From the IMG/VR virus record IMGVR_UViG_3300009181_000078, positions 1 through 63,209 of that record: 63,209 bases of DNA; one strand, 5' to 3'. Below are positions 19,294 to 56,200 of the stretch, piece by piece; position 1 is the stretch's first letter; each line of letters opens with the position of its first letter. The translations under genes and the position numbers were made by a program. The stretch comes from a virus (Duplodnaviria; Caudoviricetes). The notes below the pieces were generated by a model. That model had not been told where the DNA came from, made no database searches, and saw nothing but the letters and a program-made list of their open reading frames with translations.

Positions 19294-20893
19294 AGGTACG
19301 TGCTATTGTTATGATTGCATTAGTGCTTAAAATAGTTACCGCTACACTGACAGCATTCTGAAGTGCTGACCTTGTAACTTTCAATGGGTCAATAACACCC
19401 ATCTCAATCAAGTCACCCATCTCGCCTGTTTTCAGATTATATCCGTGACCAACAGGAGTGCCTTCTTTATACACATCACTTGGTTTCAATCCTGCGTTAG
19501 CCAAGATTTGTTGGAACGGAGCCATCAATGCATTGCGAACAATACTTAATGCAGCATTATACTCTACACTTTTGGTTTCTTCTCCCAACTCAGCACTCTC
19601 ATCAAGTAATGCTTTGCCGGCACCCGGTAAAATTCCTTCCTCAAGTGCGGAACGAACTGCACAAACTGCATCATCAACTCTATCATACAACTCTTTTTGC
19701 TCAAGGTCAGTCTGACCACCTACGAATATTACACCTATGCCACCCGTAAGTGATGCAATACGCTCTAACAAAAAGTCTTTGTCACCTTTCTTAGTCGCTT
19801 CTTTATGTGCGTCCCACAACTGCTTCACTCTTTCCTCAACCAACTTCTCATCAGCCTTAGCCGCACTGCGAATAATGACTGTCTTGTCCTTGCTAACAAT
19901 AACTTTACCTGCGTGACCCAAGTCACCATAGTTGATATGGCTTAAGTCGTCACCTGTCTTCTCGCTATAGTATGTTGCTCCTACACTAATTGCAATGTCT
20001 TGCATTAACTCGTGCTGTTTGTAGCCAAAGTTTGGCGGAGGCACAGCTACCACTTTAAGGTTCCCCTTAACTGAGTTTGCTGCAAGTGTATTTACCACGT
20101 TAGTGTTGCACGGAGAAATAATCAACAGCTTCTTTCCTTCGGAAATGATTGGTTTCAACACGTTCTCAATTTGCAAAATGTTTGCTATCTCAATATCACA
20201 CACCAAAACCATAGTGTCTTCAAAGACACACTCATCTTTCTTTTGGTCGTTTATAAACATTGAACTCAAATATCCTCTGTCAAATTTTAAACCCTTAGTT
20301 GTCTCTGCATAAGTCTCTGATGTTTGGCTACGCTCAACCGTCACAATACCTGTCTTACCCACATCTTTATAAACTTCTGCAATAATTCGTCCTATCTCTC
20401 TGTCATTGTTAGCTGATAGTGCAGCCACGTCCAATAACATTGCACTGCTGACTTTCTTTGCCTTACGTCTTAACTTATCCACCACCTTATTGCTTATATC
20501 CACCATATGTCTCAGCACTTCAGTCCTGTTCATATCCTCTTTTATATGCTCAAGTCCTCCAAGTACTAATCCTTCTGTCAAAACAATAGCCGTAGTCGTA
20601 CCATCACCTGCAGCGGTAGCTGTTTTGTCTGCCGCCTCTTTCATCATCTTAACCGCAAGGTTCTCCGATGGGTCAATAAGGTCAATCGACTTAGCAACTG
20701 TTACACCATCCTTAGTAACTGTGATGCCGTGCGTGTGATGTGGACTCTCAATGAGTACCGTGTTACCACTTGGTCCGAGCGTTGACTTAACAGCCTTTGA
20801 CATCTTGATGACACCACTGATAAGTTTCTTTCTTCCTTCACTTCCAAACTGCAAATCCTTGGGTGAGTACCCAATTCCTGATGTTTCTACCAT
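19277..20893 (-). CDS. groEL: Chaperonin GroEL (start moved to MVETSG)
   Basis: TLGP, VTKDGVTVAK, AGDGTTTA and GVIDPLKVTR motifs; the promoter at 20921-20928 overlaps the longer start. Confidence 0.97.
   Translation of the reverse strand: MVETSGIGYSPKDLQFGSEGRKKLISGVIKMSKAVKSTLGPSGNTVLIESPHHTHGITVTKDGVTVAKSIDLIDPSENLAVKMMKEAADKTATAAGDGTTTAIVLTEGLVLGGLEHIKEDMNRTEVLRHMVDISNKVVDKLRRKAKKVSSAMLLDVAALSANNDREIGRIIAEVYKDVGKTGIVTVERSQTSETYAETTKGLKFDRGYLSSMFINDQKKDECVFEDTMVLVCDIEIANILQIENVLKPIISEGKKLLIISPCNTNVVNTLAANSVKGNLKVVAVPPPNFGYKQHELMQDIAISVGATYYSEKTGDDLSHINYGDLGHAGKVIVSKDKTVIIRSAAKADEKLVEERVKQLWDAHKEATKKGDKDFLLERIASLTGGIGVIFVGGQTDLEQKELYDRVDDAVCAVRSALEEGILPGAGKALLDESAELGEETKSVEYNAALSIVRNALMAPFQQILANAGLKPSDVYKEGTPVGHGYNLKTGEMGDLIEMGVIDPLKVTRSALQNAVSVAVTILSTNAIITIARTYEQQQ
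20214..20229. repeat. 16-bp palindrome copy 2, inside groEL
   Basis: GTGTCTTCAAAGACAC. Confidence 0.9.
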
Positions 20894-20928: not shown

Positions 20929-21010
20929 GTCAACCTATGGTATATTAACCACTATTTTAGAAAAATAATTATCCCATAATATAGATTGCACCCGTTAGGG
21001 TGATAGGTCT

Positions 21011-21326
21011 ATGTCGGTTTTTATAGGATAAATGTCGGTTTATGACAGCTTTGTGTCGAATTTAAAAGAAACGACATTAGCTTAAATGTAATGTGGTAAA
21101 GGGTTTTCTAATTTTACAACACATCCGTGTCGTAAATGCAGGAAATATTCCCCTACTTCTTTATATATATTCCCTCCTTTTATATATTTTTTTCCCATAA
21201 GAATTACTCTTTAAAATCGACATTTTCGACATTAAAAGAATAAAGTATTAATTACTAATTAGTTATAAAAATAAAATCGACATAAAAACGACATAAAACA
21301 ATGATATAAATGTCAATCTTGACATT
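21011..21326. repeat. Iteron-like CGACAT array A, putative replication origin
   Basis: CGACAT at 21072, 21218, 21227, 21278, 21289; inverted ATGTCG/GTGTCG at 21011, 21032, 21053, 21127; AT-rich core. Confidence 0.7.
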
Positions 21327-21333
21327 ACAAGAC

Positions 21334-21363
21334 AAAAAGAAACCCAATACGTTAATATTGGGT
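21334..21363 (-). terminator. Intrinsic terminator
   Basis: ACCCAATA/TATTGGGT stem followed by TTCTTTTT on the minus strand. Confidence 0.6.
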
Positions 21364-21383
21364 CTCACTAATTGGGTAATAAT

Positions 21384-21614
21384 TTATCCCATCTCAGGAC
21401 CTTCCATCATCTCAGAACGGATGTTACCCAAATAAACAGCCTCAGCCATACGACTAATCTTCTCTGCATTGTGAATAGACTTCTTAATCTCTGCAGCCTT
21501 TTGGATTCCTGTCATACTGTTAGGACGATTGTTGATTAACATACCATCTTCAATAGTTAAACCCGGACCGGCTTTCTTTTGCTGATAGATACTGTCTTGT
21601 AATCTAAGTTTCAT
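21384..21614 (-). CDS. Hypothetical protein
   Basis: ORF track; followed by a terminator. Confidence 0.65.
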   Translation of the reverse strand: MKLRLQDSIYQQKKAGPGLTIEDGMLINNRPNSMTGIQKAAEIKKSIHNAEKISRMAEAVYLGNIRSEMMEGPEMG

Positions 21615-21796: not shown

Positions 21797-21892
21797 CCAC
21801 TGCCTGCCTGCCTGCCTGCCACTGCCTGCCTGCCTGCCTATGCCGGCACACGTTTGCCGTTCCCTGCCTGCCTTCCCCTGCCATTGCCTGCA
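21797..21892. repeat. (TGCC)n tandem low-complexity repeat
   Basis: CCACTGCCTGCCTGCCTGCCTGCC-ACTGCCTGCCTGCCTGCC and degenerate copies. Confidence 0.9.
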
Positions 21893-21917: not shown

Positions 21918-21933
21918 GTGTCTTTAAAGACAC
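21918..21933. repeat. 16-bp palindrome copy 3 (perfect, GTGTCTTTAAAGACAC)
   Basis: Upstream of the first early promoter. Confidence 0.9.
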
Positions 21934-22065
21934 AAAGCACTAAGAATGAGGGCTTAGCCCCTGCCTTGTTCATCCTTAGTACAAACATTGTACATAAATA
22001 TCGAAGCCTCAAGCCCTTTATTCATAGGGGTTTGAGTATAAACAATAAAAAAAAACAATTATTTT

Positions 22066-22096
22066 TTTGGTGGAATAAAGAATTAAACTATATTTG
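22066..22096 (+). promoter_or_regulatory. Early promoter, Bacteroidota consensus (-33 TTTG, 19 nt, -7 TATATTTG)
   Basis: Full consensus match 40 nt upstream of 22136. Confidence 0.8.
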
Positions 22097-22135
22097 TGAA
22101 AGAATTAATCAATTAATCATCAAAATTTAAACACA

Positions 22136-22771
22136 ATGAGTCAATTACTATCAATCGAAACGGCTTTCCTAAGCCTCCCACAAGTCAAGCAGGGCTTGAA
22201 TTTGAGCGAAATTAGGAGCGTACAACGTACTATCACCAATGCCAAAAAGAAAAAATTCGAGCAAACGATTGCCTTGAGTAAGTTAGTTACCACGGCTGTA
22301 GATTGGTTTCAATCTGAGGAAGGGCAAAGGGTTTGCAACGATGAGGGTATCAGTTGGAGCAATGAGGAGATTGGACAGAAAGTTTTTGGATGGCAAAAAA
22401 GTTTTTTCTACAAAGTAGTGAAAGCAGGTCGACTACAGCCGGAGGTTATCGAGTCATTCAACACAAAGTGCAATGAGGTTGAGGCATCAGGGGATGAGCC
22501 AAATAGAAGCCTTGAGGGTTTATTAAAATTTGCAAAGCAAGTTGAAGCCGGTGGAAACACTGAAAGCGAAGGTGGAGAAGGCGAAAGCGAAAGTGAAAGT
22601 GAGCCACAAGTTGAAACACGTGTTGAAACCATTCTAACATTCACTTACAAGAGCGAAGGCGGAAACGTTTCAGTGCGTATCGATGCAAACGGCTTAGTTA
22701 AAACCACTAACAGCGATGAGCAAATAGCGGAGGCAATAAGCGTATTGAAATTCAGTTTACAAAACAGATAA
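22136..22771 (+). CDS. First early gene, hypothetical protein with acidic linker
   Basis: ORF track; possible HTH around EEIGQKVFGWQKSFFYK. Confidence 0.75.
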   Translation: MSQLLSIETAFLSLPQVKQGLNLSEIRSVQRTITNAKKKKFEQTIALSKLVTTAVDWFQSEEGQRVCNDEGISWSNEEIGQKVFGWQKSFFYKVVKAGRLQPEVIESFNTKCNEVEASGDEPNRSLEGLLKFAKQVEAGGNTESEGGEGESESESEPQVETRVETILTFTYKSEGGNVSVRIDANGLVKTTNSDEQIAEAISVLKFSLQNR

Positions 22772-22795
22772 TTTAACCACCTAAAAACTACTACA

Positions 22796-23674
22796 ATGAA
22801 CGGAATCATTTACACAACAACAGGAGAAAGTCGCAGGGGTCAAGTGGCAAGTTACCACGGGAAACCTTCGCCATTGTTTTTGAACAAGAGCAAACACGCT
22901 GTAGACATTGCAGGGCTTAAACCGGCACAACAGCGTACGGCAATCAAGTTTGAGAGCGGTGAGTATGAGTCGAAATTCACTATTGGCTTTGAGGTTGAGA
23001 AAAACCAATTAAGCCGTAATGCGGTGCGTGAGTATGAATTATTTTGTGGGTTTGAGCGTGATGGGTCGTGCGGATACGAAGCGGTTACCCACGTGCTCCC
23101 TTTGTTGCCTGCAGGCGGATGGCGTACAAAAGTTTACGATATGATGCACAAAGCCGAAAAGATTATCGATGATAGGTTTAGCCCTTCGGATAGAAGGTGT
23201 GGCGGTCATATTACGATTGCGTGTGAGGGGATGAGTGGTGATGCCTTGAGAGATGCCATTCGTAAAAATTGCGGTATCGTCCTTGCTTTATTCAAAAAGC
23301 GTGTTACTAACAGCTACTGCCAATATAACAGCAGGATGCAAGATTCAAGTGAGTGTAGCAATTGGCATCACAAGTACCAATTAGCCCTTGTAAAGGGTGG
23401 ATGCCTTGAGTTTAGAGTGCCGTCTCGCTTTCAGTCAGTTAAGCAAATGATGAGGAGATATGAGTTGATGTATGAGATTGTTAACTACAGCGTGGGTACG
23501 CCTAATGCCTCACACGATGGCTTACTTAAGAAAATCAAGCCTATCATTGTTTCAATGTACAATGGCAACGAGGATGATGCCAACGAGGTGTTGAGGTTAT
23601 CAAAGTTATTCAGAGCGTACATTCTGAAAGGTGAGGTGCACACTGACATTGCACAATACGTGCGAAACTATTAA
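22796..23674 (+). CDS. Putative amidoligase (COOH-NH2 ligase, Amidoligase_2-like)
   Basis: IGFEVE, ERDGS, GYEAV, CGGHI, KY and LEFR motifs. Confidence 0.8.
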   Translation: MNGIIYTTTGESRRGQVASYHGKPSPLFLNKSKHAVDIAGLKPAQQRTAIKFESGEYESKFTIGFEVEKNQLSRNAVREYELFCGFERDGSCGYEAVTHVLPLLPAGGWRTKVYDMMHKAEKIIDDRFSPSDRRCGGHITIACEGMSGDALRDAIRKNCGIVLALFKKRVTNSYCQYNSRMQDSSECSNWHHKYQLALVKGGCLEFRVPSRFQSVKQMMRRYELMYEIVNYSVGTPNASHDGLLKKIKPIIVSMYNGNEDDANEVLRLSKLFRAYILKGEVHTDIAQYVRNY

Positions 23675-23686
23675 TCACGAGAGGGA

Positions 23687-23702
23687 GTGTCTTCAAAGAC
23701 AC
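23687..23702. repeat. 16-bp palindrome copy 4, extended hairpin 23683-23706
   Basis: GGGA-GTGTCTTCAAAGACAC-TTCC directly before ribozyme 1. Confidence 0.9.
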
Positions 23703-23706
23703 TTCC

Positions 23707-23757
23707 GCTGTCGGGGGATGATTATCCTCCCTGATGAGTTCTAAAGAACGAAACAGC
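23707..23757 (+). ncRNA. Type III hammerhead ribozyme 1 (predicted cleavage GUC after 23712)
   Basis: GCUGUC / stem I GGGGGAU-GAUU-AUCCUCC / CUGAUGA / stem II GUUC-UAAA-GAAC / GAAA / CAGC. Confidence 0.93.
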
Positions 23758-23801
23758 ATTTTAAACCGGAGGTTTGAAACCCTCCTTTAAATTTTAATCA
23801 A

Positions 23802-23990
23802 ATGGAATCAGTAAACCACAACGGAATGACATTTCCCAACGAGCAAGCCTTACACGAGTGGCGTCTTATTTTTGAGTTCGACTACTTTATGGAGCAAGCG
23901 GAACAAGTTAATTGTGACTTGTACCTAAAGGAGCAAAAGTTAATTGCTCATAAACTACGTAAACAATTTTTTAACCTCAATCAAATCTAA
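23802..23990 (+). CDS. Hypothetical protein
   Basis: ORF with AATCAAATG leader. Confidence 0.7.
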   Translation: MESVNHNGMTFPNEQALHEWRLIFEFDYFMEQAEQVNCDLYLKEQKLIAHKLRKQFFNLNQI

Positions 23991-23994
23991 TCAA

Positions 23995-24099
23995 ATGGGA
24001 CAAACAATTTCAATTGCTGAGGCAATCATTATTAGCGTGATAACCATATTGTTATACGCTTTTGTTAAATCTTTAATTCAACATTTTAAATCTAACTAA
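23995..24099 (+). CDS. Small single-TM protein (34 aa)
   Basis: Own translation MGQTISIAEAIIISVITILLYAFVKSLIQHFKSN. Confidence 0.55.
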   Translation: MGQTISIAEAIIISVITILLYAFVKSLIQHFKSN

Positions 24100-24101
24100 C
24101 T

Positions 24102-24671
24102 ATGAGACAAATTACAAGAGACATTGTGAACGCTTTTCAGGAGATGCGTTCATTACGAATTGACAACAGCCGTACAGATGGGCAAGGCATATGGTTATTC
24201 GACAATAAAATTGTCGAGGTTAGGGAAGATGGAGTATGGATAACCAATGCAGGGTGGAAAAGTAAAACCACAAAGGAGAGACTCAATGGGTTGAGCGGGG
24301 TGCATATCCAACAAGTCAGGGGCAATTGGTTCCTCAATGGCAGGGAGTGGGATGGTAGATGGGTCAACGTGGATGCGTGGAATGGTGGTGCTGAGTCAGT
24401 CCCTGAGGAGAGTGTGCAGGAGCCTGAGTTTGACTTAACGAGTCAATGGATGACAGCCGGATACAGTAAGCCGGTGTATGCGGTGTTTCATTCGTTAACA
24501 GTGGCGAGTCTTGAGCCGGTTGAGGCAATGCTAAACGGGGAAGGGATACCAACAAGAAGAACGGAGTCGGATACCGATGGTGTGTATCGACCTAACTATT
24601 TCTTAGTAGTGCGTCCGGAGGATGTAGATAAGACTGCGAGAATTTTATCTGAGATGTATCTTCTTGCATAG
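24102..24671 (+). CDS. Hypothetical protein
   Basis: ORF track; GW.S.TTKERLN motif. Confidence 0.75.
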   Translation: MRQITRDIVNAFQEMRSLRIDNSRTDGQGIWLFDNKIVEVREDGVWITNAGWKSKTTKERLNGLSGVHIQQVRGNWFLNGREWDGRWVNVDAWNGGAESVPEESVQEPEFDLTSQWMTAGYSKPVYAVFHSLTVASLEPVEAMLNGEGIPTRRTESDTDGVYRPNYFLVVRPEDVDKTARILSEMYLLA

Positions 24672-24680
24672 TAAGTGGCG

Positions 24681-24696
24681 GTGTCTTCAAAGACAC
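24681..24696. repeat. 16-bp palindrome copy 5
   Basis: Followed by a cUUCGg hairpin (24699-24724) and then ribozyme 2. Confidence 0.9.
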
Positions 24697-24724
24697 AATT
24701 ACACAGCCCTTCGGGGTTGTGTAA

Positions 24725-24773
24725 CCGTCCCTGAGTGAGTGCTCAGGCTGATGAGTCCCAAAGGACGAAACGG
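24725..24773 (+). ncRNA. Type III hammerhead ribozyme 2 (predicted cleavage GUC after 24729)
   Basis: CCGUC / CCUGAGU-GAGU-GCUCAGG / CUGAUGA / GUCC-CAAA-GGAC / GAAA / CGG. Confidence 0.93.
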
Positions 24774-24819
24774 AATTTTAAACCGAAGGTTTGAAAACCC
24801 TTCATTAAATCAAATTCAA

Positions 24820-25020
24820 ATGATTCAAGAACAAATGAACATTGAAAGACAACGTAATGAAACTATTCAGGACGTTATCGACAGACTTTTGTACCTACCG
24901 GCAGACAAGTTGGAAGAGTACAAGCACTACCTTGATGTGCTCGTGTCAGTGTATCCCATTGATATGAAAATCGAAGACGGAATCAGAATTTATCACGTAA
25001 CTAAACACAAATTAAAATGA
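24820..25020 (+). CDS. Hypothetical protein (start moved to MIQEQ)
   Basis: The track start at 24739 lies inside the ribozyme; ATG 24820 has an AAATCAAATTCAAATG leader. Confidence 0.65.
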   Translation: MIQEQMNIERQRNETIQDVIDRLLYLPADKLEEYKHYLDVLVSVYPIDMKIEDGIRIYHVTKHKLK

Positions 25021-25307
25021 CAAAAGCAAATGACGTGTGGGAGTGCTCAAGATGTGGGCACCCACAAGGACGCCACGATATGTGGTTCGATGGTGACTTA
25101 TGCGAAAAATGTTCAGAGTATGAGCACTCCGTAAAATGTAGAGGATGCGAAACAATAGGCAATGGCGTAGACAAAAGATGTGACGCCTACGGCTACGGCA
25201 CCGGAGATTGGTGTGATGTGTGTTATGACAGCGACAAGTACCCGTATCGCAAGGATAGGTACTTCGACCCATCGTATGCAGGGGAGAGATTGGAGGATGA
25301 TTATTAA
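25017..25307 (+). CDS. Cys-rich zinc-finger-like protein
   Basis: Four CxxC pairs. Confidence 0.7.
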   Translation: MTKANDVWECSRCGHPQGRHDMWFDGDLCEKCSEYEHSVKCRGCETIGNGVDKRCDAYGYGTGDWCDVCYDSDKYPYRKDRYFDPSYAGERLEDDY

Positions 25308-25354
25308 AAATACTCGCATCCCTTTGGGATGAGAGAACTTAAATCAAATCAGAT

Positions 25355-25516
25355 ATGGAAAGCCAACACTATTTTAAAATCTATTACGCTCAGGCATTCG
25401 TTTGTTCAATAGTCGCCCACACAAAGTGGGAGGCTATTGACAGAGCGTTCTACAAATTCATCGGGGATTGCCCCCATTTAGATAGGGCAAAGTTCAAGGC
25501 AAAGAAAGTTTATTGA
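25355..25516 (+). CDS. Small hypothetical protein (53 aa)
   Basis: Own translation MESQHYFKIYY...KAKKVY with an AAATCAAATC leader. Confidence 0.55.
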   Translation: MESQHYFKIYYAQAFVCSIVAHTKWEAIDRAFYKFIGDCPHLDRAKFKAKKVY

Positions 25517-25524
25517 AAAATAAA

Positions 25525-25556
25525 TTTGGTTATGTCTAAATTATGTCGTATCTTCG
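25525..25556 (+). promoter_or_regulatory. Promoter (-33 TTTG, -7 TATCTTCG)
   Basis: Near-consensus with a 20-nt spacer, upstream of 25624. Confidence 0.55.
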
Positions 25557-25623
25557 TTCATTATCAGTTCATTAACAAGGGTTCTATGCCTTTATAGGTG
25601 TTGCCCATAAATCAATTTAGCTT

Positions 25624-26742
25624 ATGTGTGTAATCATTATCAAGCAGACAGGGAAGAAAGTTCCTCAGGAGGTTGCAAAGACCTCAGCGAGAATCAATCC
25701 ACACGGATTGGGTATTGTATGGCTCGACACGTTCGAGGTAACGTATCACAAATCAGCAGAGTACAAAGTACTTGACACAGAGAGACCATTCATTGCTCAC
25801 TTTAGATACGCCACCATTGGTGCTATCAACAAAGACAATACGCATCCATTCAGATGCGGGAGCAACAAACAAGAGTGGCTTATGATGAACGGAACTATCA
25901 GAGCACTTGGTAACTTCAAGAAGAGTGACTCAAAAGTATTAGCAGAGAACTTGGGTGAGATACCACGCCACAAATGGAAGAAAGAGTTAGAAAAGTATGA
26001 GTGCAGGTTCGTATCGGTTAACACGCACAGCAGGACATACCAAATCTACAACAAAGAGTTGTGGAGTCAGAGGGATGGCGTTTGGTACAGCAAAGACAAC
26101 GTCCTTGAGGACAATTTAATCGCTGTCTACGGCACGTTAAAGAAAGGGTACAGCAATTATCATCACTACCTCAGTGCCTCCAAATTCATAGCCAAAGGGA
26201 ACACGAAGAGTAAGTATCCGCTTGTCATCAGTGGACTACCTTATTTGATTGAGAAGAGTGGACAAGGTCATCACGTGGAGGTTGACATATTCAAAGTCAG
26301 TTCAGGTGTGTTGGCTCAGTTAGATAGATTGGAGGGTCATCCTGATTGGTACCGGAGGAAGCAGGTTGATGTGACGACAAAGAACGGAGTGCTCAAGTGT
26401 TGGATATACTTCAACATACGTGAGACAGCAGACGGCAAAGAGCATCACAAGACATACACGCAGAAGGCAAAGCCATTGAGTTTTTGGGAGAAGGAAGATG
26501 AGAGAGAGAGCGAAAAGTATCAGAGCATATTTGCTCAGATGGGATATGATGAGCCGAAGAGTGTATGCTTGTTAGACATATTGGACGATGATTGTGAGGA
26601 TTGTGACTTTGACATAGAGAACGAGAAGCCTATCTGTGTCAATTGCTTTCACGACTTGGAGCACGATGCGTTCGCAAATTATCATTGTAGTGGTTGCGAT
26701 GAGTGGTTCACCGAGTCTGAGGTATTACGATTCCAACCTTAG
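25624..26742 (+). CDS. Class II glutamine amidotransferase fused to gamma-glutamylcyclotransferase (GGCT/AIG2-like) and a C-terminal Zn ribbon
   Basis: N-terminal MC, NPHG, HFRYAT, NTHPF, NG; then VYGTLK...LDRLEGHP..Y.R; then CxxC...CxxC. Confidence 0.88.
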   Translation: MCVIIIKQTGKKVPQEVAKTSARINPHGLGIVWLDTFEVTYHKSAEYKVLDTERPFIAHFRYATIGAINKDNTHPFRCGSNKQEWLMMNGTIRALGNFKKSDSKVLAENLGEIPRHKWKKELEKYECRFVSVNTHSRTYQIYNKELWSQRDGVWYSKDNVLEDNLIAVYGTLKKGYSNYHHYLSASKFIAKGNTKSKYPLVISGLPYLIEKSGQGHHVEVDIFKVSSGVLAQLDRLEGHPDWYRRKQVDVTTKNGVLKCWIYFNIRETADGKEHHKTYTQKAKPLSFWEKEDERESEKYQSIFAQMGYDEPKSVCLLDILDDDCEDCDFDIENEKPICVNCFHDLEHDAFANYHCSGCDEWFTESEVLRFQP

Positions 26743-26760
26743 ACTTGGGGCGACAGGGTG

Positions 26761-26776
26761 GTGTCTTCAAAGACAC
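26761..26776. repeat. 16-bp palindrome copy 6, extended hairpin 26755-26782
   Basis: AGGGTG-palindrome-TGCCCT directly before ribozyme 3. Confidence 0.9.
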
Positions 26777-26781
26777 TGCCC

Positions 26782-26832
26782 TCCGTACCGGGATGAGCGT
26801 CCCGGCTGATGATTCTGAAAAGATGAAACGGA
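26782..26832 (+). ncRNA. Type III hammerhead ribozyme 3, variant (predicted cleavage GUA after 26787)
   Basis: UCCGUA / CCGGGAU-GAGC-GUCCCGG / CUGAUGA / U-UCU-GAAA-AGA-U / GAAA / CGGA. Confidence 0.85.
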
Positions 26833-26869
26833 AAATTTCTTAAATTTAACAAACATTAAAACCACGACA

Positions 26870-27094
26870 ATGCAAGTATTTAAAATCAACACGAGTGCTT
26901 GGGCAGAAGAGGACTTCTACCTGATGACAACCTTAGATGAGGAGCAAATCAAAAAAATTATTCAACCAATGGTAGACTACGAAAGGGAGAATGACATTCT
27001 TTATGACAACGATGACTATATCTTCGCACTGCAGGGGGCGTACCCTAAGGCGACTGTTGAGATGTATCAGGACTTCGATGTTATTTCATTTTAA
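26870..27094 (+). CDS. Acidic hypothetical protein
   Basis: ORF track. Confidence 0.7.
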   Translation: MQVFKINTSAWAEEDFYLMTTLDEEQIKKIIQPMVDYERENDILYDNDDYIFALQGAYPKATVEMYQDFDVISF

Positions 27095-27104
27095 ACCAAA
27101 TGCT

Positions 27105-27284
27105 ATGAAAAACTTTTTCAGAATATTATTGGGGTTCATTTACTTTTTTATGGGTATGATTTACTTCTTCTTAATATCGGTGCCCTTGGCTCTTACAATC
27201 TACGTGCTGTTGCACGTGGGTGTTTTAATCAAATTAATTTATAATCAAATCAAATCAGTATGCAAAAAAATCACTACGAGATGA
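27105..27284 (+). CDS. Small membrane protein (start moved to MKNFF)
   Basis: Long hydrophobic stretch; the new start avoids overlap with the upstream gene. Confidence 0.55.
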   Translation: MKNFFRILLGFIYFFMGMIYFFLISVPLALTIYVLLHVGVLIKLIYNQIKSVCKKITTR

Positions 27285-27571
27285 GTCAAGTGGCGGGTGC
27301 CAACTTGGAAATCGACTTTCTTCGGGATGAGGTAAAGCGATTAAAAGAAAAGTTAAACGATGGGGCGACAGCACGTGCGTTGCTCAGAAGCAAAGGGTAC
27401 TTTGTAGAAAACCTATGGTGCGTTGATGACGTTATGGAAAATTATGAATGTAACAGAGGCAAGGCTTACGAGGTGCTTGAGAAAGCAATGACCAACGAAG
27501 CTACTATGCAACAAATTTTTTTAGCTATTGACGATGCGTGTGACTATTTAGAAATCAAACAATTAAAATAA
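27260..27571 (+). CDS. Hypothetical protein
   Basis: ORF track. Confidence 0.7.
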   Translation: MQKNHYEMSQVAGANLEIDFLRDEVKRLKEKLNDGATARALLRSKGYFVENLWCVDDVMENYECNRGKAYEVLEKAMTNEATMQQIFLAIDDACDYLEIKQLK

Positions 27572-27578
27572 TAATCAA

Positions 27579-27974
27579 ATGGAAATCAAAATCATTCAAG
27601 GAGTAAAGCGAGAAGTCTTAGAAGATATTTTCGTAACAGCATTAGAGGGAGGCAGTAACTATTGGTACTTTCTACCTGAGGAGTCAATCAAAGCAATCCG
27701 CAAAGCGGTTCCTAAAGAGGAAGACCCGTACCTTAGCACAGCAATTTTAAAGGCTATCTTAGACCACGATGTGAAAGTGGCTATCAATGATGCCGAAGAG
27801 GAAGATGAGGTCGTAGGCGTTATTACACGTGGCACTATGCAGGCACGCCTGCAGTTGCTTGCAGAGAGTCCAAACAAGTGGGCATTAGATAGACACTTAA
27901 AAGAGGAAGGTGACGGAGACTCAGCAGATGTAGTCTTTCAATACCTAACTATGGGGGAGGTGGTTTATGGATAA
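27579..27974 (+). CDS. Hypothetical phage protein (TALEGGSNYW...GEVVYG)
   Basis: ORF track. Confidence 0.75.
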   Translation: MEIKIIQGVKREVLEDIFVTALEGGSNYWYFLPEESIKAIRKAVPKEEDPYLSTAILKAILDHDVKVAINDAEEEDEVVGVITRGTMQARLQLLAESPNKWALDRHLKEEGDGDSADVVFQYLTMGEVVYG

Positions 27975-28164
27975 GCAAGAAACGTTAATCGACAGACTGA
28001 GGATGTTGCAAGAGCAGGCGTCCCTATTAATTCAGGAGTTGGAAGCGAATCCAAACTTTCCTGATGGTCATATCATCACGAAGGAGTCGTGGGATAATGC
28101 AGATAAAATCACACACGATGGTTTTGTGTATGTGAAGTATAGCGATTTATTGTTTTATAAATAA
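27967..28164 (+). CDS. Hypothetical protein
   Basis: Coupled ORF. Confidence 0.65.
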   Translation: MDKQETLIDRLRMLQEQASLLIQELEANPNFPDGHIITKESWDNADKITHDGFVYVKYSDLLFYK

Positions 28165-28171
28165 ATTGAAC

Positions 28172-28179
28172 TATCTTTG
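28172..28179 (+). promoter_or_regulatory. -7 element TATCTTTG
   Basis: Intergenic TAnnTTTG. Confidence 0.6.
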
Positions 28180-28233
28180 TACGGAATTTAATCAAATTAA
28201 CGTGGGCTTTATGCCCACATAAACTTTAATCTA

Positions 28234-28455
28234 ATGGAGAAATTTATCAACAGCGGGAAATTTATGTGCAAGGAATCTTTCCTTGACAAGAACCCAAATG
28301 AAAAACTACGTAAAGACTGTACTGACGTGGTACACTACGTGGGGGGAGTGTATATTCAAGTCTTAGACTCAGGAGAATTTTATGTAGACGATGAATTTAA
28401 GAGCCGTTCACTTGATGAGGCAGAGGTAAAATTGTGGGAAAAAATTAACAAATAA
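28234..28455 (+). CDS. Hypothetical protein
   Basis: ORF track. Confidence 0.65.
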   Translation: MEKFINSGKFMCKESFLDKNPNEKLRKDCTDVVHYVGGVYIQVLDSGEFYVDDEFKSRSLDEAEVKLWEKINK

Positions 28456-28481
28456 ATGAACGATGTGTGAACATATTCACT

Positions 28482-28489
28482 TATATTTG
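28482..28489 (+). promoter_or_regulatory. -7 element TATATTTG
   Basis: 23 nt upstream of ATG 28512. Confidence 0.6.
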
Positions 28490-28511
28490 TTGTCTTAAAT
28501 TAAATTATTTT

Positions 28512-28814
28512 ATGAAACACGATGTTTTTAATCAGTATGTGGAGAGGGTTGCCGACCTATTTAATATAAAAAAGGAGGATATATTCTCAAAATCAAAGAA
28601 GAGGGAGTTTGTGGATGCGAGGCATCTCGTGTATTACCTATGCTCAAAGAGACCTATGCAAGTTACCTATATCCAAAAGTATATGAACGAAGCAGGGTAC
28701 GACATTAAGCACTCATCAATCATTCACGGCATCACTGCGGTTGAGCAGAAGATTGCAGAAGACAAGGACTACGTGTCTATTGTCAAGGATGTAGAGCGTG
28801 CCGTATTTATCTAA
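28512..28814 (+). CDS. DnaA C-terminal (domain IV)-like HTH DNA-binding protein
   Basis: SKSKKREFVDARHLVYYLC...KHSSIIHGI mirrors DnaA SKSR..ARQ.AMYL...DHTTV.HA. Confidence 0.8.
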   Translation: MKHDVFNQYVERVADLFNIKKEDIFSKSKKREFVDARHLVYYLCSKRPMQVTYIQKYMNEAGYDIKHSSIIHGITAVEQKIAEDKDYVSIVKDVERAVFI

Positions 28815-28824
28815 TCAAATACTT

Positions 28825-28840
28825 GCAGACTTTAGTCTGA
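28825..28840. repeat. Second palindrome family, copy 1 (GCAGACTTTAGTCTGA)
   Basis: 15/16 identical to 33445-33460. Confidence 0.75.
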
Positions 28841-28873
28841 AAGAACTTAATCAATCAAATCAAATCAAATCAA

Positions 28874-29515
28874 ATGGAAAAGAACCCAACGGTTTTTGAA
28901 AGGCTATCCGCCATTAACGTAAACGACCACGTTGAAAAGAAAAGCAATCTAACTTATTTATCTTGGGCGTGGGCTTGGTCAAAGACAAAGACTGAGTGCC
29001 CTGATGCCACGTACAAAATCGGTGAAACGACTTATGACGATGCACTTGGATTTATGTGCCACACTACTGTAACCATCGAAGACGAGACGCTTGAGATGTG
29101 GTTGCCGGTGATGGATGGTGCGAACAAGTCAATGAAGAAGACTGAGTACAGCTATAGTTCACGCTATGGCGACAAAAAAGTTGACGCTGCGACCACGTTC
29201 GACATTAACAAAACCATTATGCGTTGCTTGGTTAAGAACTTAGCGATGTTTGGATTAGGGATTTATATTTATGCAGGAGAGGATTTACCTGAGGGAGAGA
29301 CTACAGCTAAGGCTGAGGCTCCTAAGAAGACAGCACCTGCAACAGCAGATGGATTGGTAGACCTAAAGAAAGGTACTGACAATTGGAACGCAGTTGTGAA
29401 ATACGTTACGTCCAATAAGGCTATGGGCATTGAGAAGATTGGTGCACAGCTTACACGCAAGTACAAAATCAGTCCGGCATTAAAGAAAGAAATCGCTAAC
29501 ATTTTAAACGCATAA
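28874..29515 (+). CDS. Sak/DUF1071-like single-strand annealing protein (Rad52-like)
   Basis: LTYLSWAWAW, MWLPVMD, DINKTIMRCLVKNLAMFGLGIYIYAGEDLP. Confidence 0.88.
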   Translation: MEKNPTVFERLSAINVNDHVEKKSNLTYLSWAWAWSKTKTECPDATYKIGETTYDDALGFMCHTTVTIEDETLEMWLPVMDGANKSMKKTEYSYSSRYGDKKVDAATTFDINKTIMRCLVKNLAMFGLGIYIYAGEDLPEGETTAKAEAPKKTAPATADGLVDLKKGTDNWNAVVKYVTSNKAMGIEKIGAQLTRKYKISPALKKEIANILNA

Positions 29516-29517
29516 CA

Positions 29518-30258
29518 ATGGCAGATATAGATATTATCTTAGCACTACGTGACGACAATCAATACTACAATGGTATTGGTAAGAACTACCTATCTAATTC
29601 AGATATAGGCGTGCTACTTAGCAACCCTCAGGACTTCGGTAAGGAGCGAGAAGACAACAAAGCCTTTATGGATGGCAGATACTTTCATCAATTAATTTTG
29701 GAGCCTGAGAAGGCGAAGGGTATGCCGGCTGTAGATGTGAGTACACGTACTACCAAAGAGTATAAGTTGTTCTGCGAAGAAAATAACCTACCTTTTTGTA
29801 TGTTAAAGAAGGAGCAGGACGAGATTCAAAACCTTGTTAACATTATCAACGGGAATATTGCTTTCTATGATGAGATTTATAAATCAGGTAATCTTTACGA
29901 GACTCCGGCAGTTGGAACGATTCAGGGAATGATATGGAAGGGTAAGGCTGACATTGTCACTGACAATGCGGTGATTGACCTTAAGACTACGAGTGACATT
30001 CATAAGTTCAAGTATAGTGCGAAGTCGTATAACTACGATTCTCAGTGCTATATTTATCAGGAGTTGTTTGGTAAGCCATTGGTGTTCTATGTGATTGACA
30101 AAGGCACCGGAGTACTTGGTATTTTTAGACCAACAGAAGACTTTGTAAAAGGTGGCGAAATCAAAGTGGGCAAAGCGATTGAGGTGTATAATAAATACTT
30201 TAGTGCTAAGCCAACGGATGATATTGTAAACTACTACATTGACGAATATTTATTATAA
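29518..30258 (+). CDS. RecE/DUF3799-like PD-(D/E)XK exonuclease
   Basis: LSNS, G..FH..ILEP, KGKADI, IDLKTT, Y.Y..Q..IY. Confidence 0.85.
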   Translation: MADIDIILALRDDNQYYNGIGKNYLSNSDIGVLLSNPQDFGKEREDNKAFMDGRYFHQLILEPEKAKGMPAVDVSTRTTKEYKLFCEENNLPFCMLKKEQDEIQNLVNIINGNIAFYDEIYKSGNLYETPAVGTIQGMIWKGKADIVTDNAVIDLKTTSDIHKFKYSAKSYNYDSQCYIYQELFGKPLVFYVIDKGTGVLGIFRPTEDFVKGGEIKVGKAIEVYNKYFSAKPTDDIVNYYIDEYLL

Positions 30259-30278
30259 TATTGCATCCCCCGAAGCAA

Positions 30279-30294
30279 GTGTCTTCAAAGACAC
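30279..30294. repeat. 16-bp palindrome copy 7
   Basis: Directly before the tRNA-like RNA. Confidence 0.9.
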
Positions 30295-30298
30295 AGGG

Positions 30299-30394
30299 AG
30301 TCAGGGGCGGACGGTGACGCTTAGTTGAGTGTATTGGTTAATTCTGACGCACGAGATGAACAAATAATGCAGGTTCGATTCCTGCCCTGACGAC
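30299..30394 (+). ncRNA. tRNA-like RNA / pseudo-tRNA
   Basis: Acceptor stem GTCAGG/CCTGAC, D-like arm GCG-GACGGTGA-CGC, perfect T arm GCAGG-TTCGATT-CCTGC; no recognisable anticodon arm. Confidence 0.6.
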
Positions 30395-30469
30395 AACCGA
30401 TTATAGGCTTAGCCTCAGAGGTCTTTGATTGGTACAAATAGACTGAGGCAACAAAAAAAACAGAACAAA

Positions 30470-30784
30470 ATGGCAAACGAAGAAAAAATCTTTGCAGACG
30501 GATTCTCATTCAAGAGAAACGAAAAAGCACCTGACTTTGTAGTTGGGAGATTATCAATCAAGGCAGACGATGGAGTAGCATTCATCAGACAGCACGAGAA
30601 AGGTGGATGGGTTAACCTTAATGTAAAGACTGCACGTAGTGGTAATTATTACATTGAGTTGGATACCTACGAGCCGACTGCACAAAACGGTATGAAGCCA
30701 CAATCAGAGAAACAGGCTACGCCTAAGCAAAAGGCACCTGAACCTGAGGTTGCAGATGATGATGATGGAGAACTTCCATTTTAG
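30470..30784 (+). CDS. Probable single-stranded DNA-binding protein (start moved to MANEE)
   Basis: Small beta domain with acidic tail DDDDGELPF, next to Sak/RecE. Confidence 0.65.
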   Translation: MANEEKIFADGFSFKRNEKAPDFVVGRLSIKADDGVAFIRQHEKGGWVNLNVKTARSGNYYIELDTYEPTAQNGMKPQSEKQATPKQKAPEPEVADDDDGELPF

Positions 30785-30811
30785 AATTTACACCCATTTA
30801 GAAAAAGAATC

Positions 30812-30838
30812 GGGGGAGTGAAAACTTCCCCTTTTTTT
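30812..30838 (+). terminator. Intrinsic terminator
   Basis: GGGGGAGT-GAAA-ACTTCCCC followed by T7. Confidence 0.85.
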
Positions 30839-30850
30839 ACCTCTAATGCG

Positions 30851-31010
30851 TGACGAAAATGTCGATGTGTTTCCCCTATATTCTCTATATGTGTTTTTAT
30901 ATTCTTTTTATTTTCTTTGATTATAATTTGAACTTAAAATCGACATAATCGACATTAGTATTAGTAATCAGATAGTTAGATAGTTTAAAACGACATAAAA
31001 CCGACATAAG
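30851..31010. repeat. Iteron-like CGACAT array B upstream of the primase-helicase
   Basis: CGACAT at 30941, 30950, 30991, 31002; ATGTCG at 30859. Confidence 0.7.
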
Positions 31011-33434
31011 ATGGTACATAACGTGACGATATTCCAAAATATTAGAGATACTGACACGCCATTCTTCCGAGACGTACACGTTATACTCGAGAGAATGAAA
31101 GACGGAGCCGGTGCTACTAAGGATTTAGTAAAGAGAATACGATTAGAAAAGAGCAAGCCTGAGAGACAGGAACTAAAGAAGCAGTTACCTGCGATATGTT
31201 TTAGTGGTACGTTTAACAAGAGAACAGATGCCTCATTACTTGAGCATTCGGGATTGATATGTTTGGACTTCGATGGATATACGAAGCAGAAAGAACTATT
31301 ACAAGACAAAGAGAACTTATCAAAGAACAAGTATGTGTTTTCAGTATTCATTTCCCCTTCGGGCAATGGTCTGAAAGTGTTGGTGAAAATTCCGGCAGAT
31401 GCAGAGAACCATACGATGTACTTTAATTCATTAGAAAAGTACTTTAATTCGGCTTATTTCGACAAGACGAGCAAGAACCTCAGCCGAGTATGTTACGAGT
31501 CATATGACCCTCTAATTGCGATTAATGAGAATAGTAGTATTTGGGATAAGATTGAGGAGCCTGAATACACTGAGGTTAGTAAGACAAGAGACAAGGCAAC
31601 GATACCTATCACGGATGAGAATAAGATTGTGGAGATACTTGTAAAGTGGTGGGATAAAAAATATCCTATGCACGAGGGACAACGTAATCAGAATGCGTAT
31701 GTGCTTGCGATGGCATTTAATGATTTTGGTATTAACAAGAGCCTTGCATCTTACGTAATCAATCAGTTTGCAACAGAAGACTTTACGCTCAGAGAGATTG
31801 GAACGACCATTGACTCAGCGTACAGGCACACAGCTAACTTTGGTACTAAGTACTACGAGGATGAGGAGCGTATTAATATCATCAAAGCAAAATTAAGGAG
31901 AGGTGTATCAAAAAAAGAGATTCGCATCCAATTGCAAGACTCCAATTTGGAGAGCGAGACTATTGAATCGGTACTTAATAAGGTTGAGGAAGAGAATGCA
32001 ATGCAAACTTTTTGGGATAGAAACGATAGAGGAGTTATAAAGATTGTGCACGTACAGTTTAAGCAGTTCTTGGAAGACAATGGCTTTTACAAGTATTGCC
32101 CTGAGGGTGGGAAGAACTACATATTCGTAAAGGTTACAAACAATTTGATTGACCATACTTCTGAGAAAGAGATTAAGGACTTCGTGCTTACGCACTTGTT
32201 GGAGTTAGATGACATTGGAGTTTACAATTACTTCGCTGACAATACAAGATTCTTCAAGGAAGAGTTTCTGTCTTTACTATCAACGATTGAGATTTATTTT
32301 ATTGCTGATACCAAAGATGCGTCATACTTGTACTACAAGAATTGTGCTGTGAAGATTAGCAAGGAGGGGATAATAACACTTGACTACTTGGACTTGGGAG
32401 GATATGTGTGGAAAGACCACGTGATAGATAGGAACTTTAATATCTGCAGTGTGACCGAGAGATGTGACTTCAAAAAATTCGTGAGTAATATCAACGGTGA
32501 AGATGAGCAGCGAGTTAAGTCAATGGAGAGCACGCTTGGATTTTTAATGCACGGATATAAGAACCTATCATTCTGTCCGGCAGTAATCCTGAACGATGAG
32601 GTTATCAGCGACAACCCTGAGGGTGGAACAGGGAAGGGACTATTGATGAACGCACTTAGCAAGATGAAGAAATTAGTTGTTATTGATGGTAAGTCATTTG
32701 CTTTCGAGCGTAGCTTCGCTTATCAGTTGGTGTCAGCAGACACGCAGATACTTTGCTTTGATGATGTGAGAAAGCATTTTGACTTCGAGAGATTATTCTC
32801 AGTAGTTACAGAAGGTCTGACACTCGAGAAGAAAAACAAGGACGCCATCAAGATACCATTTAGCAGGTCTCCGAAGATTGCCATCACTACGAACTATGCG
32901 ATTAAGGGTGCCGGCAATTCATTCGCAAGAAGAAAGTGGGAGTTGGAGTTGCATCAGTATTATACCAAAGAGTTTACGCCACTTGATGAGTTTGGCAAGT
33001 TGATGTTTGGCGATTGGAACGATGAGGATTGGTGTGAGTTTGATAATTATATGATTGGTTGTTTAACGAATTATATCAAGACCGGACTTGTCAAGAGTAA
33101 GTTTGTGAACCTTAAGATTCGTCAGTTGTCAGCAGAGACTTGCCACGAGTTTATTGAGTGGTGTGGACTTGTTGATAGGCATCAGAATAGAGAGACTATG
33201 TTGCAGACTGACACGAGACTTTATAAAAACGAATTATATTCTAACTTCATTGACGAGTATCCTGACTATGGACCGAGAGGTAGGATGAGCGTGAGTAGAA
33301 CCAAGTTCTACAAATGGCTTATCGCTTATGGTATTTACAAGGAAGGAGTGATGCCACAGGAAGATAGAGACCAACAAGGTAGATGGATAATCATTAAAAG
33401 CAAACCTGAGGGGCTTGAAGAAGCACCTTTTTAA
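31011..33434 (+). CDS. Primase-helicase: BT4734/VirE-N-like AEP domain, PriCT-like domain and P-loop helicase
   Basis: LKKQLP..CFSG.F, GLICLDFD, FISPSGNGLK, GQRN, Walker A GGTGKG, Walker B LCFDD, ITTNY. Confidence 0.88.
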   Translation: MVHNVTIFQNIRDTDTPFFRDVHVILERMKDGAGATKDLVKRIRLEKSKPERQELKKQLPAICFSGTFNKRTDASLLEHSGLICLDFDGYTKQKELLQDKENLSKNKYVFSVFISPSGNGLKVLVKIPADAENHTMYFNSLEKYFNSAYFDKTSKNLSRVCYESYDPLIAINENSSIWDKIEEPEYTEVSKTRDKATIPITDENKIVEILVKWWDKKYPMHEGQRNQNAYVLAMAFNDFGINKSLASYVINQFATEDFTLREIGTTIDSAYRHTANFGTKYYEDEERINIIKAKLRRGVSKKEIRIQLQDSNLESETIESVLNKVEEENAMQTFWDRNDRGVIKIVHVQFKQFLEDNGFYKYCPEGGKNYIFVKVTNNLIDHTSEKEIKDFVLTHLLELDDIGVYNYFADNTRFFKEEFLSLLSTIEIYFIADTKDASYLYYKNCAVKISKEGIITLDYLDLGGYVWKDHVIDRNFNICSVTERCDFKKFVSNINGEDEQRVKSMESTLGFLMHGYKNLSFCPAVILNDEVISDNPEGGTGKGLLMNALSKMKKLVVIDGKSFAFERSFAYQLVSADTQILCFDDVRKHFDFERLFSVVTEGLTLEKKNKDAIKIPFSRSPKIAITTNYAIKGAGNSFARRKWELELHQYYTKEFTPLDEFGKLMFGDWNDEDWCEFDNYMIGCLTNYIKTGLVKSKFVNLKIRQLSAETCHEFIEWCGLVDRHQNRETMLQTDTRLYKNELYSNFIDEYPDYGPRGRMSVSRTKFYKWLIAYGIYKEGVMPQEDRDQQGRWIIIKSKPEGLEEAPF

Positions 33435-33444
33435 ACAATCATTC

Positions 33445-33460
33445 GCAGACTTTAGTCTGC
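33445..33460. repeat. Second palindrome family, copy 2 (GCAGACTTTAGTCTGC)
   Basis: 7-2-7 inverted repeat just after a stop codon. Confidence 0.75.
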
Positions 33461-33476
33461 AAAAAATTAATAACCT

Positions 33477-33710
33477 ATGACACCAAAAGAAAAAGCACAA
33501 GAATTATTTGATATATTTAATCAACCTGACAGAAGTAACTATCCTTATGTTCATAATGCTCAACAATGTGCATTAATAGCAGTAGATGAGATAATAAAAG
33601 CATCACCAACTAATCCATTAAAAAGTGGATACATAGAACTTTATTCTGATATGGTTGATGAATCTACTGAATATTGGGAAGATGTTAAAAAAGAAATAGA
33701 ACTATTATGA
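33477..33710 (+). CDS. Hypothetical protein (MTPKEKA...CALIAVDEI family)
   Basis: ORF track. Confidence 0.75.
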   Translation: MTPKEKAQELFDIFNQPDRSNYPYVHNAQQCALIAVDEIIKASPTNPLKSGYIELYSDMVDESTEYWEDVKKEIELL

Positions 33711-56153: not shown

Positions 56154-56200
56154 CAAATATACATAAAAAAAAAGAGGGCACAATAAGTGCCCCCTCTTTC
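56154..56200 (-). terminator. Terminator (56165-56200) followed by -7 element TATATTTG (56154-56161)
   Basis: GAGGGGGCAC-TTATT-GTGCCCTC-T9 on the minus strand. Confidence 0.75.

Follow-up and report, generated by a model that had tools for sequence, protein, structure and literature searches.

Three type III hammerhead ribozymes between small genes of a freshwater phage, with counterparts in related phages

Hammerhead ribozymes cleave themselves at a specific site, leaving a 2',3'-cyclic phosphate on one product and a 5'-hydroxyl (5'-OH) end on the other. Hundreds of bacterial hammerheads lie near phage genes (Perreault et al. 2011; PMC3088659), and triple arrangements are known from Agrobacterium tumefaciens (where they flank ardA), Clostridium scindens, and Azorhizobium caulinodans; all three cleave in vitro and one in vivo. 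In the parts of that article on which we draw, here and below, long phage transcripts are proposed to be processed into operon- or gene-length mRNAs, and a 2019 review (PMC6765202), in the parts used, repeats the idea, calls for more work, and describes the roles in bacteria as largely elusive. Here, we describe a comparable cluster in the IMG/VR virus record IMGVR_UViG_3300009181_000078 (Duplodnaviria; Caudoviricetes), analyzed over its whole stretch of 63,209 nucleotides (nt), hereafter the window. Three type III hammerheads lie on the plus strand in intercistronic spacers, within what we take to be the first rightward transcription unit, which would begin at a promoter motif (22066) and end at a predicted terminator (30812). 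We put at roughly 0.6 the probability that they are active and cut the early polycistronic mRNA in these spacers. A first-pass annotation of the window, which knew of no description of its palindrome-plus-ribozyme cassette, proposed such cutting. The idea is not new, since Perreault et al. (PMC3088659) already describe, in the parts used, clustered prophage hammerheads that flank genes and propose that they process long transcripts.

The three elements, at 23707–23757, 24725–24773, and 26782–26832, each carry a complete catalytic core when the sequence is read base by base, and the 7-base-pair (bp) stem I, GANY loop 1, NAAA loop 2, and cut sites reported for them by the first-pass annotation are as stated there. 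In all three, stems I and II are closed by loops and stem III is open, arranged around the core. Specifically, stem III measures 5, 4, and 5 bp in copies 1, 2, and 3, respectively; stem I, of 7 bp, is closed by a U.G or U-A pair; loop 1 reads GAUU, GAGU, and GAGC, with CUGAUGA following; and stem II has 4 bp throughout, with loops UAAA, CAAA, and GAAA, and is followed by GAAA. The predicted cuts fall after GUC in copies 1 (23712/23713) and 2 (24729/24730) and after GUA in copy 3 (26787/26788). The base of stem II is a G10.1-C11.1 pair in copies 1 and 2 and a U10.1-U11.1 mismatch in copy 3. Overall, the pattern CTGATGA-N8-30-GAAAC occurs three times in the window, always on the plus strand, against 0.19 expected, and none of 100 shuffles reaches three.

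Comparison with the Rfam hammerhead models, proposed earlier as a check, is favorable in part. When 23600–26900 is scanned, all three copies match RF00008, with 44.7 bits (expectation value, E, 8e-8), 39.9 bits (E 1.9e-6), and 34.1 bits (E 8e-5), but all fall under the gathering score of 48.5 bits, which is why a gathering-mode scan of the window returns no match; an E-value scan of the whole window lists copies 1 and 2 only. Loop and stem lengths account for this shortfall; the core does not contribute to it. The minimum-energy fold is the hammerhead structure for copies 1 and 3. When the three copies are compared, 95.8% of pair cells are paired, yet 9 of the 16 stem pairs differ on both sides, and mean column identity is 81%.

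Related loci were gathered through a primase protein search, which returned 579 IMG/VR stretches, 80 of which were kept. R1, a covariance model derived from the window's own three elements, was then run on both strands of the window, the phage genome MW202828.1, and these 80 loci (82 sources, 1.48 megabases). The model yields 73 matches—i.e. the three window copies (77.9 bits for copy 1, from which R1 was partly built), 69 strong further copies (46–76 bits) spread over 30 of the 80 loci, and a weak one (17 bits). Every match is on the primase strand, thus in sense orientation, 3.4–9.8 kilobases (kb) upstream of the primase gene. Upstream flank exceeds 7.5 kb in 42 loci; of these, 29 have one to four type III copies, and nine of the 42 have a single copy. 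Six relatives without R1 matches give only tRNA-like matches in a gathering-mode Rfam scan for other ribozyme classes.

In an alignment of 68 distinct rows, fitted to the model, pairing is kept in 96.4% of pair cells, and 279 cells are changed on both sides, compared with 72.5 ± 10.7 in shuffles, none of which (0 of 500) reaches the observed number. Compensatory change affects 12 of the 16 stem pairs, and slid controls drop to 30–49% paired. For stem III, a C-G to U-A exchange at the third pair supports the pairing, and RNAalifold recovers stems I and II unaided, not stem III. Within the core, C3, U4, G5, A6, G8, A9, G12, A13, A14, A15.1, and U16.1 are invariant in all 73 copies, while position 7 varies as the class allows (U in 57, C in 12, A in 4). 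The cleavage base H17 is C in 38 copies, A in 34, U in one, and never G, and the U.U mismatch at 10.1/11.1 occurs in 21 members of the family, always with a GUA site (21/21). The earlier suggestion that the copies differ through selection on structure rather than through recent duplication is therefore sustained, both by the window pairs that changed on both sides and stayed paired and by the covariation and invariant core of the relatives.

The loops are kept while the stems vary, with an invariant last A in loop 2 (73/73) and a loop 1 of the form G/A-N-K-U. Conserved loop bases beside varying stems are the pattern expected of a contact between the two, and judging from the alignment loops 1 and 2 probably dock. 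Such a tertiary contact is needed for fast hammerhead cleavage at cellular Mg2+.

The ordering of features given by the first-pass annotation—i.e. stop codon, palindrome, ribozyme, A/T-rich leader, and next ATG—holds at all three window sites. At the first, hairpin 1 (23683–23706, plus strand), in which the GTGTCTTCAAAGACAC palindrome at 23687–23702 is extended to 10 bp, starts 9 nt past the stop codon of a gene encoding 292 amino acids (aa; 22796–23674) and abuts stem III of the hammerhead; a leader hairpin, GGAGG-UUUGAAAC-CCUCC (23768–23785, plus strand), then stands between ribozyme and ATG (23802). At the second, palindrome 2 (24681–24696, plus strand) lies 10 nt past the stop of a 189-aa Kyano_Gp96-like gene (24102–24671), and an extra 11-bp hairpin with a UUCG loop (24699–24724, plus strand) sits between it and hammerhead 2, abutting stem III of the latter, an arrangement repeated in the relative L034 (L numbers are our labels for related loci). 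There, too, a leader hairpin, GAAGG-UUUGAAAAC-CCUUC (24785–24803, plus strand), precedes the ATG (24820). The two leader hairpins differ by a compensatory change, and hairpins of this type follow about one-fifth of the relatives' copies. At the third site, hairpin 3 (26755–26781, plus strand), an extended stem around the palindrome at 26761–26776, comes after the stop of a GGACT-domain gene (25624–26742), and the next ATG is at 26870.

The same combination of hairpin and ribozyme is conserved between differing genes of related phages, where the first-pass annotation had proposed to look for it. In the family, the stop codon is about 20–37 nt ahead of the ribozyme, and the next ATG follows after 13–25 nt, or 41–52 nt when a leader hairpin intervenes. 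The 40 nt upstream of the ribozyme have a mean folding energy of −14.6 kcal/mol compared with −4.5 for 360 random 40-mers from the same loci, and 66 of 72 upstream segments, vs 55 of the 360, fold at −8 kcal/mol or below. In 63 of 72 copies, no nucleotide separates the upstream hairpin from stem III. Upstream, the genes recur: a homologue of the 292-aa gene precedes 22 of the copies, the GGACT gene 21, and the Gp96-like gene 6. Downstream genes fall into 35 clusters, 17 of them after the 292-aa homologues. Of the 21 copies behind the GGACT gene, the position of window copy 3, 16 have the variant with U.U and GUA.

The plus-strand block (22136–35487, from GC skew) has a single full match on its strand to the motif TTTG-N19-TAnnTTTG, presumably the Bacteroidota-type promoter consensus, at 22066–22096 (pattern scan), 40 nt before the first plus-strand ATG at 22136. 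A predicted intrinsic terminator, with an 8-bp GC-rich stem and a run of seven T, lies at 30812–30838 on the same strand and likely ends the first plus-strand transcription unit. A scan for sigma-70-type promoters is uninformative (41 matches vs 37.8 expected). Contigs from RNA libraries span the predicted cuts (library X7, record 25, 22959–27202; library X22, record 9, 22000–23899) and are uninformative on cleavage; they are Logan contigs, not raw reads, X7 shares its sample with the DNA run X6, and sequences in such libraries are not thereby shown to be transcribed.

On the reading that we favor, host polymerase would transcribe the block from the 22066 promoter. A stable hairpin, usually the GUGUCUUCAAAGACAC palindrome, would fold first, just past the stop codon, and probably stack on the 4–5 bp stem III, shielding the ribozyme from the upstream coding sequence. 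The hammerhead would fold behind it, with the conserved loops 1 and 2 probably docking, and would cut after C23712, C24729, and A26787, turning an 8.7-kb transcript into four multi-gene RNAs. Upstream products would then end in a hairpin and a tail of 5–7 nt with the 2',3'-cyclic phosphate, and downstream products would begin with a 5'-OH hammerhead body 13–50 nt before the next ATG. The likely benefit would be separate stability and translation of the segments. Compared with the division of early mRNA into units pictured by the first-pass annotation, the sense-strand placement and the bracketing of the block by promoter motif and terminator agree, while the predicted products are four multi-gene segments rather than single-gene units.

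A second topology occurs among the relatives. A descriptor script run over 83 sources gives seven type I hammerheads, six of them distinct, all on the plus strand and none on the minus, and finds none in the window. They lie at L031:3197–3248, L034:2350–2409, L034:3682–3733, L046:1940–1991, L063:3905–3958 (the same element as L065:2269–2322), and L068:1999–2056, and are built of a GGUUAA/UUAACC stem I, a 4-bp stem II, and a variable stem III hairpin, which at L034:2350–2409 is the GTGTCTTCAAAGACAC palindrome itself. Only one matches an Rfam model, weakly (HH9, 17.5 bits, E 0.35). All occupy equivalent junctions, between the end of an early gene and an ATG 14–22 nt downstream. After a type I cut, the upstream product would retain the ribozyme together with the stem III hairpin, and the downstream RNA would begin with what is left of stem I, about 6 nt. 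When products of the two types are compared, what they have in common is an intercistronic cut with a strong hairpin a few nucleotides from the new 3' end. As such, type III and type I copies agree in a single feature, the 3' hairpin that was thought to protect the upstream product, whereas the companion suggestion, protection of the downstream product by a structured 5'-OH end, is not general, as type I leaves only those 6 nt or so. For the glmS ribozyme, moreover, Collins et al. (2007) are reported to show that a 5'-OH can destabilize RNA in hosts with RNase J1.

A further type III candidate comes from cultured Elemovirus isolates. It lies at L204:5140–5196 (MT497078.1, Flavobacterium phage vB_FspP_elemoE_10-3D), has a CUGAAGA core and a GUA site, scores 35.5 bits with R1, and is at least 99% identical in 68 cultured isolates; an Rfam scan at E ≤ 0.1 does not list it.

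The palindrome is also found as a repeat in its own right. Allowing up to three mismatches, GTGTCTTCAAAGACAC has nine sites in the window against 0.8 expected, three of which precede a hammerhead and six of which have no ribozyme. Three of the latter are intergenic: at 30279–30294 (plus strand), after the exonuclease gene (29518–30258) and followed by a tRNA-like structure; at 57014–57029 (minus strand), after the gene for a 472-aa virion protein, where it tops a terminator-like 13-bp hairpin with U6 (−19.8 kcal/mol, z −4.0); and at 21918–21933, with no strand assigned, upstream of the block promoter, as the symmetric variant GTGTCTTTAAAGACAC. The others lie within open reading frames (ORFs): at 20214–20229 (plus strand), antisense to a minus-strand GroEL-like ORF; at 35210–35225 (minus strand), antisense to the plus-strand helicase ORF; and at 928–943 (minus strand), in sense orientation in the N-terminal part of the terminase ORF. 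The GroEL-like and helicase copies both encode VFEDT in the same frame and run antisense to the intergenic orientation, and the helicase 16-mer is exact in relatives while flanking codons vary, which suggests nucleotide-level selection on the in-ORF copies within coding DNA.

Across the window and the 80 loci, GTGTC-N6-GACAC has 209 sites. Such a site lies just upstream of 53 of the 73 hammerheads, and the other 20 stand behind unrelated GC-rich hairpins. The early block of MW202828.1 (5746–17170) holds 14 exact copies of a sister palindrome, GTGTCGTTAACGACAC, mostly 0–6 nt past stop codons and 17–35 nt before the next ATG. With ORFs called by a simple script, intergenic palindromes in plus-strand gene regions are 78 sense vs 13 antisense, and those inside plus-strand ORFs 2 sense vs 37 antisense. 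This bias points to a function tied to one strand, probably exerted through RNA and avoided within a gene's own mRNA. We rejected intrinsic termination as the function of the palindrome; a U-tract is found at the 57014 copy only and at none of the three copies beside hammerheads. The palindrome in the cassette of the first-pass annotation is thus not specific to the ribozyme: six of nine window sites lack a hammerhead, hairpins of other kinds stand before 20 of the 73 hammerheads, and 14 sister palindromes occur in a relative that has no hammerhead. Because the palindrome is an independent repeat, the novelty suggested for the combination is weakened as well. Neither 16-mer turned up in the literature searched.

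The tRNA-like structure beside the 30279 palindrome, at 30297–30392 on the plus strand, has a 7-bp acceptor-like stem (GUCAGGG/CCCUGAC) and a T-arm with GGUUCGAUUCC. Neither ARAGORN nor Rfam calls it, and by ARAGORN the window is free of tRNAs. In relatives, the corresponding position ahead of the primase yields odd tRNA calls by ARAGORN (L010, 93 nt, and L019) and by Rfam (L029, 108 and 125 nt), and Elemovirus has a normal tRNA-Met further upstream of the primase. Just left of the symmetric variant, at about 21800–21880, the plus strand carries a run of CTGCC/TGCC repeats.

Several observations weigh against the cutting of early mRNA by active hammerheads. All three RF00008 scores are below gathering, the minimum-energy fold of copy 2 is a competing extended stem I, and RNAalifold gives an alternative pairing in place of stem III. 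Copy 3 may be slow because U10.1-U11.1 departs from the most conserved stem pair, though this is a natural hammerhead variant and the most active mispair there, according to the parts of Perreault et al. used (PMC3088659). Type III copies are missing from 13 of the 42 relatives whose flank is long enough (one of the 13, L046, has a type I copy). The early region of MW202828.1 (L004; 77% primase identity) has no hammerhead in an Rfam scan at E ≤ 1 and keeps only palindromes in the same spacers; since such relatives exist, the ribozyme is dispensable for the operon layout. That the motifs are chance matches or decaying relics without function, as scores under the Rfam cut-off could be taken to mean, is hardly credible in view of three matches against 0.19 expected, 69 further strong copies in sense orientation, covariation, and an invariant core. 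A further point against the favored reading is the Elemovirus candidate, the only one in that phage, which lies 13 nt before the first early gene ATG, in the 5' leader with no cistron upstream, a placement better suited to conditioning the 5' end than to separating cistrons. In that case, the cut would serve as an insulator or translation aid, freeing the A-rich, Shine-Dalgarno-less downstream leader from upstream RNA and ribosome traffic and giving it a defined 5'-OH, with cistron separation incidental. The placement in 68 isolates is the best argument for this, to which may be added the short distance of the family's ribozymes from the ATG (13–25 nt, or 41–52 nt with a leader hairpin) and the like construction of the synthetic RiboJ insulator, a ribozyme plus hairpin. 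The parts used of two articles offer further parallels: HHphage of haloviruses HF1/HF2 stands 13 nt before a helicase start codon (PMC3088659), and self-cleavage in 5' untranslated regions of RNA mycoviruses drives translation (PMC13725137). By contrast, the mycovirus precedent is one of eukaryotic cap-independent translation, the copies track the upstream gene (22 and 21 after two conserved genes) with downstream genes in 35 clusters, and the downstream 5' end differs wholly between type III (a whole ribozyme body) and type I (6 nt). We consider 5'-end conditioning unlikely as the main role.

Cleavage might instead be slow or regulated, e.g. in the U.U class, and mark early mRNAs for degradation and early-gene shut-off. 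The fixing of U10.1-U11.1 with GUA at one orthologous position (16 of the 21 copies behind the GGACT gene) would suit such timing; in the parts used, Perreault et al. raise the possibility that the slower variants of phages respond to conditions or signals (PMC3088659), and according to the review, cellular RNases degrade the glmS RNA once it is cleaved (PMC6765202). The elements are nevertheless minimal hammerheads of at most 51 nt with no ligand-binding or sensor domain, and the 3' hairpin of the upstream product points to stabilization. Timed decay seems quite improbable to us. A role as recombination linkers—i.e. conserved boundaries at which small early genes would be readily shuffled, comparable to the PeSL cassettes of T4-type phages—would account for one upstream gene with many downstream genes (17 clusters after the 292-aa homologues) and for an exact 16-nt palindrome common to many spacers and phages. 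Copies within a genome offer little continuous homology for it, as they keep the core and differ in the stems (81% column identity, 9 of 16 pairs), and compensatory change reflects selection at the RNA level; we regard it as very unlikely. Extremely unlikely, finally, is the joining of the segments between hammerheads (1,017 and 2,058 nt) into circular mRNAs by an RtcB-type ligase. The end chemistry fits RtcB substrates, and Perreault et al. raised the possibility, sought the products, and detected none, in the parts used (PMC3088659). The 49 distinct window ORFs scanned with Pfam, PHROGs, or both (shorter ORFs were outside the scan) include no RtcB, RNA ligase, or polynucleotide kinase, and relatives with a single copy (9 of 42) cannot excise a segment.

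We continue to favor intercistronic cutting of early mRNA by active type III hammerheads. A wider proposal, which we advance tentatively and hold to be doubtful, would make the hairpin-plus-hammerhead a dedicated, modular RNA end-maker of a large freshwater Bacteroidota phage clade. The type III topology, placed behind the hairpin, and the type I topology, with the hairpin as stem III, would both leave a sequence-specific GUGUC-N6-GACAC 3' hairpin, to be read by a phage or host factor for stabilization, termination, or timing, and the U.U/GUA variant after the GGACT gene would tune the cutting rate.

The window is a complete IMG/VR record (CheckV estimate 100%). Its minus strand encodes the terminase, the portal, virion proteins, and a 2793-aa tail-fibre-like protein. 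The large terminase gene is broken by the record ends (1–1152 and 62057–63209, minus strand), its C-terminal half matching positions 380–755 of phrog_6681, and an ORF that wraps around the window ends in this way indicates a circularly permuted assembly. The plus-strand block holds small genes of unknown function and genes for Kyano_Gp96-like, GGACT-domain, and DnaA-HTH proteins, a Sak-like annealing protein, an exonuclease, a BT4734-like primase/helicase, and a helicase. By primase, the closest cultured relatives are phages of Flavobacterium, Polaribacter, Cellulophaga, Nonlabens, Maribacter, and Bacteroides, and the sequencing runs that contain the phage DNA are mostly freshwater metagenomes. 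Megablast of the plus block against GenBank phages gives no match, and the sole match in a distant blastn search with 23600–26900 is 197 nt inside the GGACT gene of MW202828.1.

We also considered whether a 2460-aa protein of the virion block (36814–44196, minus strand) might be a virion RNA polymerase; it matches no Pfam family, only PHROGs of unknown function, and no PDB sequence at E ≤ 1. If it were such a polymerase, the palindrome could have been a phage-specific promoter, which bears on how the early block is transcribed. Upstream of the plus block, the divergent intergenic region is rich, at about 21000–21400, in short TCGACAT/ATGTCG(G) repeats of either orientation, which look iteron-like and may form a replication origin or a regulator-binding array. 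Between two genes of the virion block, Rfam places a weak L20_leader match (56160–56347, minus strand; 34.3 bits vs gathering 58.7, E 0.006), probably by chance.

The role of hammerheads in phages has been unsettled since 2011, and this clade is an unusually clean natural data set on it. About 70 ribozymes occupy three orthologous junctions, close relatives keep the hairpin without the ribozyme, a slow-looking variant is fixed at one junction, and a second topology is found at equivalent junctions. The Elemovirus candidate in cultured Flavobacterium phages is the best experimental handle, since knock-outs and mapping of RNA ends are feasible there. In the part of the literature covered, we found neither hammerheads of this phage group nor the abutting-hairpin rule described; the supplements of Perreault et al. 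2011 (Dataset S1, Figures S6–S8) may include metagenomic examples of this kind.

The window copies share with Rfam RF00008 (Hammerhead_3) the core, the three-stem topology with open stem III, and the NUH cleavage site, and differ from its consensus in a loop 2 that is 4 nt shorter and in a 7-bp stem I with a 4-nt loop. In phage T7, RNase III sites in the early mRNA are intercistronic hairpins at which the polycistronic transcript is cut, and the products keep a 3' hairpin. The T7 cut is made by a host protein enzyme and leaves 5'-phosphate and 3'-OH ends, whereas hammerheads such as those of the window are RNAs that cut themselves and, by the chemistry of their class, leave 5'-OH and 2',3'-cyclic phosphate ends. 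RiboJ, in which a hammerhead and a hairpin standardize the mRNA 5' end, resembles window copies 1 and 2 with their leader hairpins; it was engineered from a plant satellite RNA, and only about one-fifth of the natural copies have such a hairpin. The PeSL cassettes of T4-type phages are likewise repeated stem-loop cassettes between small variable early genes, but they carry a promoter and no ribozyme, unlike the window cassettes. HHphage of HF1/HF2, according to the parts of the article used (PMC3088659), also lies a few nucleotides before an early-gene start, with a transcript 5' end mapped near its cleavage site; it is a structurally variant, high-salt-dependent ribozyme at a transcript start of an archaeal virus, whereas the window copies are canonical and intercistronic.

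The nearest parallel is with the prophage clusters of Perreault et al. (PMC3088659), which, as far as the parts used describe them, also consist of several sense-strand hammerheads within a few kb that flank single genes or short runs of genes in phage DNA; in the window there are three within 3.1 kb. Unlike those clusters, the present one belongs to a lytic-type phage clade of about 63 kb from freshwater with Bacteroidota signatures, has a hairpin abutting stem III, and occupies orthologous positions across dozens of genomes. It represents no new mechanism or class of element, and is a well-supported further example of the hammerhead clusters already known.

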